Positions 1 to 141 of a stretch of 42,072 nucleotides of DNA are shown piece by piece; position 1 is the stretch's first letter; each line of letters starts with the position of its first letter. Source of the DNA: Shigella phage phiSD1; sequence record PQ571306; one strand, written 5' to 3'. Both the position numbers and the translations under genes were made by a program. The notes beneath the pieces are model-generated. The model had not been told where the DNA came from, did not search any database, and saw nothing but the letters and a program-made list of their open reading frames with translations.

Positions 1-141
1 AAGAACAGATTCACTAAATACCTGTTCGCACGGAGACCCAAAAGTAGCAAAAGACATAAACCCCAGAGCTAATACTAATTTACGCATAATTGTTTCCTCA
101 GTAAGTTACGGGTGAATAGTACCCTATTATATTGGGGTGTG
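1..141. repeat. Terminal duplicate: identical to 41932-42072
   Basis: Direct comparison of window start and end shows 141/141 identity; duplication is limited by the window edges. Confidence 0.9.
113..139. promoter_or_regulatory. 27-bp promoter-like element TGAATAGTACCCTATTATATTGGGGTG (copy A; orientation ambiguous)
   Basis: Identical copy at 33853-33879; reverse complement gives TATAAT 38 nt upstream of the minus-strand ATG at 42018 (wrap-around); plus orientation gives TATATT with weak -35. Confidence 0.4.

Follow-up and report, generated by a model that had tools for sequence, protein, structure and literature searches.

A repeated dyad-bearing element in Shigella phage phiSD1 as a probable sigma-70-type promoter of reverse accessory cassettes

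In Shigella phage phiSD1 (sequence record PQ571306; the stretch of 42,072 nt that was analysed is referred to as the window), two groups of accessory genes are oriented against the late structural genes that surround them, and an identical 27-bp sequence, TGAATAGTACCCTATTATATTGGGGTG, lies in front of both. This raises the question of how genes that run backward among late structural genes can be transcribed separately from them. Our analysis suggests that each copy of this element is the core of an ordinary sigma-70-type promoter, which would be read by the host RNA polymerase and which is overlapped by a dyad, the putative operator of a phage helix-turn-helix (HTH) regulator; we regard this reading as fairly probable. 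Such a promoter would explain the independent transcription of the reverse genes, which include superinfection-exclusion-like, nuclease and small membrane proteins and are insulated by a predicted terminator hairpin at the far end. The analysis shows the repeat and its family, its coupling to genes downstream, its joint presence or absence with reverse genes, the enrichment of the dyad and the existence of the two HTH genes; the transcription start, the use of sigma-70, protein binding, repression and timing are points that we infer.

The window represents a Kagunavirus-like siphophage of the Guernseyvirinae, which shows 92.9% identity to Escherichia phage SZH-1 over 6 kb and has hundreds of Escherichia and Salmonella siphophages as sequence relatives. 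Positions 1-141 are identical to positions 41932-42072. This end identity reflects overlapping ends in the assembly of a circularly permuted genome, whose unit length is 41,931 bp, and because of it the matches of the 27-mer at 113-139 and 42044-42070 are one site. Together with the match at 33853-33879, there are thus two true exact copies, whereas none was expected from 100 shuffles. The identity between copies 1 and 2 reaches 32 bp with one mismatch. Copy 3 (21301-21327) lies on the opposite strand and has three mismatches to the 27-mer, and a repeat finder revealed a more diverged copy 4 (22562-22596). The preliminary description of this DNA, which had reported the exact 27-mers, was right about their positions, about the minus-strand genes to the left (41692-42018 and others at copy 1; 33727-33828 and 33386-33730 at copy 2), about the plus-strand late genes to the right (tail assembly chaperone at 252; spanin at 34203) and about a minus-strand TATAAT that precedes the ATG at 87 (= 42018) by 38 nt and the one at 33828 by 37 nt. 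It overlooked copies 3 and 4, four promoters that share the core of the element, and a reverse gene that lacks the element (31530-31697). Bacterial genomes (596 Gb) yielded 11 scattered matches, which is roughly chance level, and none of them was enterobacterial.

With regard to direction, the evidence points to the reverse genes. IMG/VR was scanned with the pattern TTGC-N12-AATAG-NN-TACTATTCA, and the matches were combined with the other loci of this comparison, including the window, to give 149 instances. A Shine-Dalgarno sequence and a start codon were found 25-44 nt after TACTAT in 146 of the 149, whereas in the other direction the distance to the nearest gene is 25-350 nt, where there is a gene at all. 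The proteins encoded downstream form 36 clusters without mutual BLAST similarity, among them Imm-like membrane proteins, a 173-aa sliding-clamp-like protein, a methyltransferase and many small proteins. Head-junction loci were gathered by means of a motif of the adjacent leader that is unrelated to the element. Of the 18 loci with a reverse gene, 17 have the element, as against none of the 18 without such a gene, and K1G has neither. Phages skrot, LSPA1 and Bas70 combine the same element with different reverse genes, and Sciku exhibits an extra copy before a reverse sliding-clamp gene that is inserted between the portal and head-morphogenesis genes. Copy 4 lies between the plus-strand genes 22384-22557 and 22625-22750, with no reverse gene to transcribe; its orientation is fixed, as both flanking genes are co-directional. 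The proposal of a minus-strand promoter reading into the reverse cassettes was thus supported by the coupling to ribosome-binding site and start codon, by the unrelated cargoes and by the co-occurrence at the head junction. The idea that this promoter is dedicated to accessory genes did not hold, since the same module appears to drive plus-strand early genes at 21350 and 22625 and since the promoters of replication genes carry the same palindrome. Likewise, the supposedly conserved spacing between the element and the ATG is only the normal range of a short 5' untranslated region (UTR).

The hexamers that we assign to the leftward promoter are TTGCAC or TTGCGC and TACTAT, separated by 17 bp. 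The arrangement TTGC(A/G)C, 17 bp, TACTAT is found in all four copies of the window as well as in K1G, Sciku and SETP3, and all four window copies exhibit the features of a predicted sigma-70 promoter, namely a TTGACA-like -35, a spacing of 16-18 bp and a -10 with A2 and T6. The distance of 17 bp between TTGC and TACTAT is kept even in Sciku, with its unrelated spacer (gctggggaag versus accccaatat), and TTGC is also invariant in tail-junction orthologues that were not selected for it. The earlier assignment of TATAAT as the -10, with a poor -35, was correct in that TATAAT is present, but the conserved pair is the one given above. A leftward promoter that uses TATAAT, either as a -10-only or as a factor-dependent promoter, with TTGCAC conserved for another reason, is in our view unlikely. 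TATAAT matches the consensus at all six positions, and every variant (TATAAT, CATAAT, TAGAAT, CAGAAT and AAGAAT) fits the pattern nAnAAT, with its A2 and T6. Nevertheless, no -35-like hexamer is conserved 16-18 bp upstream of it and it has no TG extension, whereas TTGC is invariant at exactly 17 bp from TACTAT. In copies of the 22581 type, the position of TATAAT reads CAGAAT, TAGAAT or AAGAAT while TTGCAC and TACTAT are unchanged. The AAT of this hexamer belongs to a dyad half-site; as both candidate -10s overlap such half-sites, their conservation is confounded. Our assignment is a prediction from the sequence. A factor-dependent promoter, as had been suggested, is plausible only in the sense of a palindromic operator that overlaps the promoter.

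This palindrome, AATAG-N4-CTATT, is strongly enriched. In the 41.9-kb genome, eight exact occurrences of its core contrast with 0.03 expected, and 11 occurrences with no more than one mismatch contrast with 1.0 expected. When all 5-mer inverted repeats with gaps of 2-8 bp were counted without bias, this dyad was the top-ranked one in the window as well as in K1G and SETP3. It occurs in two registers. Register A, at 115, 33855, 21312 and 22581, has the layout TTGC(A/G)C, 10 bp, AATAG, 2 bp, TACTATTCA, in which the -35-like hexamer lies exactly 17 bp from the -10-like TACTAT and the dyad covers approximately -19 to -6. Register B, at 12156, 15728, 17844 and 17888 and always on the strand of the replication-cluster genes, has the layout TTGACA, 4 bp, AATAG-N4-CTAT, TATAGT or TATATT, which corresponds to a near-consensus sigma-70 promoter with the dyad within its 17-bp spacer, at approximately -25 to -12. 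Comparison of orthologous promoters between Kagunavirus and Jerseyvirus shows invariant half-sites and hexamers, whereas the central 4 bp vary freely (TTAG, CAAA, TTGG, CAAG, TACT). Given that the dyad is located upstream of the predicted start in both registers, it would act at the DNA level. To our knowledge, none of the CRP, FNR, ArgR, Fur and TrpR boxes fits the spacing of this dyad. An exact dyad at 22265-22278 (region 22235-22313, plus strand) is an orphan without promoter hexamers, with the direct repeats GGTGGTGTAACA and GGTGGTGTAATA ahead of it and a terminator (22292-22313) behind it, and this arrangement is also kept in a relative from IMG/VR (L081).

The Cornellvirus genome L106 (Salmonella phage vB_CECAV_044) has no AATAG-N4-CTATT. 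Instead, it exhibits TATTA-N6-TAATA in seven intergenic promoter regions, including those before its own reverse cassettes, where about one was expected, and the reciprocal pattern holds in Kagunavirus and Jerseyvirus. As 16-mers, the Cornellvirus and Kagunavirus-type dyads differ symmetrically, by one base per half-site. We regard it as probable that the dyad is the operator of a phage HTH regulator, and two candidate binders were identified from the sequence (Table 1). The first is the Cro-like protein, immediately upstream of whose gene two dyads are located; 14-bp dyads are what dimers of the 434 type bind. The Jerseyvirus Cro-like protein is 51% identical and goes with the same dyad, and that of Cornellvirus is 39% identical and goes with a different dyad, the difference being the one symmetric operator change. 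The second is the HTH_17 protein, which was found in the examined, dyad-bearing genomes of Kagunavirus and Jerseyvirus, without a homologue in the dyad-free Cornellvirus genome. It has homologues in 442 GenBank phage records, all of Kagunavirus or Jerseyvirus type by organism name, and is 80-91% identical between the two genera, far better conserved than the Cro-like protein. Its distribution fits that of the dyad at least as well as the distribution of the Cro-like protein does. In one IMG/VR contig (L100), a paralogue of HTH_17 constitutes the head-junction reverse gene, without the dyad. An analogy to AlpA of Pseudomonas, which likewise binds an element located between the -35 and the -10 (PMC9371919), was rejected: AlpA is far larger, with its HTH at positions 128-142, and a 67-aa protein cannot carry the N-terminal ring.

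Because HTH_17 and the dyad are present or absent together in the genomes examined, a more far-reaching reading can be formulated, although we consider it quite unlikely. AATAG-N4-CTATT would be the genome-wide site of HTH_17, and the protein would act as a single early-to-late switch of a virulent siphophage: it would silence the replication, early and accessory (moron) promoters and, at the tail junction, where the leftward and rightward promoters overlap in their -35 regions, free or stimulate the late tail promoter. The shared promoter-operator would double as a homology linker for the exchange of morons between genera. If true, this would, together with the conserved structured leader and terminator before the head operon, amount to an undescribed circuit of late-gene control.

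The mechanism that we propose begins with the host RNA polymerase, without any phage polymerase, which would fire leftward on the minus strand into the reverse cassette. It would recognize the -35 TTGCAC or TTGCGC, at or just past the right edge of the 27-mer, and the -10 TACTAT across the 17-bp spacer, and the ribosome-binding site and start codon would follow about 27-28 nt beyond the -10. The dyad would likely serve as the operator of a small dimeric phage HTH regulator, either the Cro-like or the HTH_17 candidate, which, when bound at -25 to -6, would occlude RNA polymerase; repression would be the simplest outcome. In this way, the reverse accessory genes may be switched with the early and replication regulon rather than with the surrounding late genes. 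The terminator at the far end would close each cassette as a moron-like module, and the conserved promoter would mark the boundary at which cargo swaps between phages.

Several observations weigh against this interpretation. TTGCAC and TACTAT match the consensus at only 7 of 12 positions, which is under the threshold of a simple consensus scan, and such a scan of the minus strand did not flag the element. The perfect TATAAT lies only 6 bp upstream of TACTAT and, with nAnAAT retained in every copy, could be the real or a second -10. The IMG/VR pattern required TTGC, AATAG and TACTATTCA, the conservation of which is therefore not demonstrable from the 149 instances, and the counts are not independent, since the sequences are phylogenetically related. 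Our literature search did not find transcription-start data for Kagunavirus or Jerseyvirus. In the one published time course of a Kagunavirus, a coarse RNA-seq study of K1B4, an HTH-domain gene is among four early genes, and the superinfection-immunity gene and the DNA polymerase are among the late-peaking genes (PMC12645636); this hints at most that dyad-bearing promoters behave alike, and it is a misfit with simple early expression followed by repression. With regard to the regulator, the recognition helix of the Cro-like protein reads QGAINQ in Kagunavirus and QSLITH in Jerseyvirus, so that four of six positions differ while the dyad is unchanged; no significant homologue of HTH_17 was found in the PDB; and on the comparative evidence either of the two proteins may be the binder. 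Finally, a third reverse gene of the window (31530-31697, minus strand; 55 aa, phrog_35937), located between the portal and head-morphogenesis genes, has the predicted promoter TTGAAG-17-GATACT without a dyad (region 31530-31784). It shares the bidirectional terminator 31506-31525. At the same junction, Sciku carries its sliding-clamp gene with the canonical element. The element before reverse genes is therefore common, not universal.

The element could also, or instead, be a rightward late promoter on the plus strand, with TATATT as its -10, no -35 and the need for an activator, which we consider improbable. Read rightward, it resembles a register-B promoter minus its -35: the plus-strand core is the same as in the replication-gene promoters (tgAATAGnnnnCTATTATAnT), with only TTGACA lacking. 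In addition, TATTAT(A/G)TT is kept in the three copies in divergent regions and decayed in the co-directional copy 4, and the centre of the dyad lies about 45 bp upstream of the likely start of the tail operon. In contrast, no -35 is conserved at 16-18 bp, and the plus-strand TATATT followed by GGGGTG, which had been considered as a promoter, is missing at the head junction of genomes without a cassette. K1G-type genomes keep the head operon and its leader without the element. Both late operons have predicted promoters of their own: TTGACT-17-TAAGCT for the head operon (33951-33979, plus strand), an operon that is also kept in cassette-less genomes, and TGnTAGAAT (151-159) for the tail operon. 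Since the cassette-less genomes keep the head operon with its own promoter, the element is dispensable for it. In the 32 Kagunavirus-type tail-junction orthologues, TG and TAGAAT are invariant and n takes all four bases, a pattern which, judged by sequence, is the signature of an extended -10 promoter. The weak -35 of this rightward promoter, TTGGGG (132-137), falls inside the 27-mer, and the leftward -35 (139-144) falls inside the rightward spacer. As their -35s interlock in this way, the two predicted tail-junction promoters overlap back to back, and they probably compete. The plus-strand pair TCGATA-18-TATATT, a weak match in the scan, was set aside, as was a hairpin specific to copy 1; neither is conserved.

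The leftward promoter also coincides with a boundary of gene exchange. Similarity between genera sets in precisely with the first base of the element and extends rightward as a block, and at the tail junction of 32 Kagunavirus-type genomes the element and the sequence to its right are common, whereas four or five unrelated versions are found to its left. Because the left side swaps and the right side is conserved, the conserved promoter is the boundary of cargo exchange. It is very unlikely that the element is a mere recombination linker, hairpin or terminator without a role in transcription initiation. Its position at the border between conserved backbone and variable cargo is compatible with this, and the consensus scan shows a weak hairpin followed by a T-run at 110-124. 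This hairpin, however, needs a GGG that is unique to copy 1 and missing at copy 2 and in K1G. Moreover, a linker does not account for the strict orientation and the fixed distance to ribosome-binding site and ATG, and the cassettes have no other promoter candidate. As a terminator lies at the far end and a promoter at the near end, both predicted, each cassette is a promoter-cargo-terminator module between late operons and therefore a moron in the lambdoid sense; the head junction, which is empty in K1G-type genomes and filled by different genes elsewhere, shows the insertion that this implies.

The motif itself is already known, having been tabulated for sister phages, and represents ordinary biology rather than a new principle. 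For the Kagunavirus fBC-Eco01, seven promoters (PP1-PP7) were predicted with PHIRE, with the consensus tgAATAGTa-ccTATTat-T, and were called phage-RNA-polymerase promoters (PMC9825357). Table S2 of that paper lists the 20-mer TGAATAGTACCCTATTATAT twice (PP1 and PP2) and a variant that differs by one to two bases, TGAATAGTATCCTATTATGT (PP3), all with the direction "Reverse" (PMC9825357). Seven PHIRE promoters were also reported in the Golestan paper (PMC7203180), and in the RefSeq record of Salmonella phage SETP3 (NC_009232.2) BPROM promoters are annotated on the minus strand before reverse genes. The fBC-Eco01 and SETP3 predictions are the same motif as the element of the window. A promoter for a phage-encoded RNA polymerase, the label "Phage RNAP promoter" of the fBC-Eco01 paper, was rejected as next to impossible: a sequence of 20-30 bp repeated about seven times per genome is what PHIRE detects (PMC9825357), but the repeats bear sigma-70 hexamers at canonical spacing, and no RNA polymerase gene was found among the window's open reading frames (ORFs) of at least 416 aa, all of which were assigned (tape measure, tail, helicase, DNA polymerase, exonuclease, primase-helicase, terminase and portal), or in the annotation of K1G, Sciku and SETP3. 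The literature label is thereby corrected. The fBC-Eco01 and SETP3 sources list the repeat without hexamer assignment, the two registers or a link to cargo exchange, and the description of the dyad as an operator was not found in the literature searched. What we add is the assignment of the hexamers, the dyad in two registers together with two candidate regulators, the tight association of the element with reverse cargo, and the overlapping rightward tail promoter. For the engineering of therapeutic phages of Kagunavirus and Jerseyvirus, the element may offer a ready-made boundary and promoter for cargo insertion.

Comparable systems are known from lambdoid and T4-type phages. The Cro-CI operators of 434, P22 and lambda are likewise dyads of 14-16 bp that overlap -35 and -10 and in which 5-bp half-sites are conserved around a free centre, and the 71-aa protein of the window is closest to 434 Cro and encoded beside two dyads. 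In contrast to these systems, the window has no CI, no tripartite OR/OL and no lysogeny module, and its sites occur at at least eight promoters of a virulent phage. CI, integrase and tripartite operators are absent from the annotation of the relatives K1G, Sciku and SETP3, so that the components of a lysogeny switch are lacking there. The half-site AATAG is unlike the ACAA of 434, and from one genus to the other the recognition helix does not change in step with the operator. Klebsiella phage klb_E, which encodes a distant Cro homologue, is a 434-like phage with sites of the type ACAA-N6-TTGT and serves as a contrast only. The morons of the lambdoid phages HK97 and HK022, reportedly described by Juhala et al. 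in 2000, resemble the cassettes in being one or more extra genes between late genes that are adjacent in relatives, with their own promoter and terminator. The cassettes differ from them in that the host phage is virulent, without expression from a repressed prophage, and in that the promoter module is shared with core early operons. The promoter-early stem-loop (PeSL) cassettes of T4-type phages, said to have been described by Arbiol et al. in 2010, are similar in that variable small genes are bordered by repeated early promoters, at which shuffling boundaries are also found. Unlike in PeSL, however, the promoter and the terminator hairpin are separate and located at opposite cassette ends, with no stem-loop fused to the promoter.

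The coordinates of the main features are collected in Table 1, in which the gene map was derived from the annotated relatives K1G, Sciku and SETP3.

Table 1. Features of the window; promoters, operators and terminators are predicted.
Feature	Position	Strand	Details and basis
Copy 1 of the 27-mer, tail junction	113-139		same physical site as 42044-42070; exact match
Duplicate of copy 1	42044-42070		product of the 141-bp overlap of the ends
Copy 2 of the 27-mer, head junction	33853-33879		exact match
-35 TTGCAC, copy 1	139-144	-	TTGC invariant in 32/32 Kagunavirus-type tail-junction orthologues; positions 5-6 vary
-10 TACTAT, copy 1	116-121	-	17 bp from -35; 28 nt before ATG at 87 (= 42018)
-35 TTGCGC, copy 2	33879-33884	-	sequence and orthologue comparison
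-10 TACTAT, copy 2	33856-33861	-	27 nt before ATG at 33828
14-bp palindrome AATAGTACCCTATT, putative operator	115-128		overlaps -10 and spacer of copy 1
14-bp palindrome, copy 2	33855-33868		
Copy 3, putative promoter	21296-21325	+	TTGCAC 21296-21301, 17 bp, TACTAT 21319-21324, palindrome 21312-21325; would drive early gene at 21350
Copy 4, putative promoter	22565-22594	+	TTGCAC 22565-22570, 17 bp, TACTAT 22588-22593, palindrome 22581-22594; would drive gene at 22625
Spacer-type promoter TTGACA-17-TATAGT	12151-12179	-	palindrome 12156-12169 in spacer
Spacer-type promoter TTGACA-17-TATATT	15723-15751	-	palindrome 15728-15741 in spacer; upstream of SSB-like gene
Two tandem spacer-type promoters, TTGACA-17-TATAGT and TTGATA-17-TAATTA	17839-17911	-	palindromes 17844-17857 and 17888-17901; divergent from Cro-like gene
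Probable rightward tail-operon promoter	132-159	+	TTGGGG 132-137, 16 bp, extended -10 TGtTAGAAT 151-159
434-Cro-like HTH_3 protein, 71 aa	17932-18147	+	Pfam HTH_3 1.2e-12; best PDB match 434 Cro, E = 4.9e-7
HTH_17 protein, 67 aa	20694-20897	-	Pfam; distribution matches that of the palindrome
Tail-junction cassette, putatively driven by copy 1	40269-42018	-	108-aa secreted protein 41692-42018; SbcD-like exonuclease 40496-41626; 76-aa ORF 40269-40499
Head-junction cassette, putatively driven by copy 2	33386-33828	-	33-aa membrane peptide 33727-33828; 114-aa lipoprotein-like protein 33386-33730
Terminator hairpin, distal end of tail-junction cassette	40076-40095		scan: minus strand only; plus-strand reading from sequence
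Bidirectional terminator, distal end of head-junction cassette	33293-33313		predicted, both strands
Terminator hairpin	31506-31525		predicted, both strands
Tail genes	252-9380	+	relatives' annotation
Replication cluster	~9.3-21.3 kb	-	relatives' annotation
Early, lysis, packaging and head genes	21.35-33.3 kb	+	relatives' annotation
Small reverse cassette	33386-33828	-	relatives' annotation
Head and tail-tube genes	34203-40071	+	relatives' annotation
Second reverse cassette	40269-42018	-	relatives' annotation

Several structures were observed in the vicinity of the late operons. A scan of the whole window against Rfam at gathering thresholds gave no match, nor did a tRNA scan. The tail chaperone gene is preceded by a conserved 5' UTR hairpin, GCGCC...GGCGC around GCGGGTGGTTCCCGC (region 132-225, plus strand), the outer stem of which is retained in SETP3 through G:U changes. 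The region 33951-34202 (plus strand) comprises a promoter, about 190 nt of untranslated leader and an intrinsic terminator (34159-34178), after which the spanin/head operon begins. Conservation of this region between Escherichia and Salmonella phages is about 95%; the region has no Rfam match and shows a minimum free energy (MFE) z-score of -2.8. There are two sequence variants, which have ACCGCGG...ACGC(G/A)TTCGGAAGGGCC in common; RNAalifold predicted a long-range helix between ACCGCGG and TTCGGAAGGGCC with one compensatory change from a C:G to a U:A pair, while the inner hairpins differ in sequence between the variants. This layout recalls PR'-6S-tR' of lambda or put of HK022 and by analogy suggests antitermination control of the late genes. 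Finally, the terminators at module boundaries belong to two sequence families, AAAAAGGCC...GGCCTTAGTT and AAAAAGCCCCGC...GGGGCTTT, at 14983-15009, 31503-31529 and 40072-40098, and at 9635-9668 and 33291-33324. Together with the shared promoter, these families could provide homology for module exchange.

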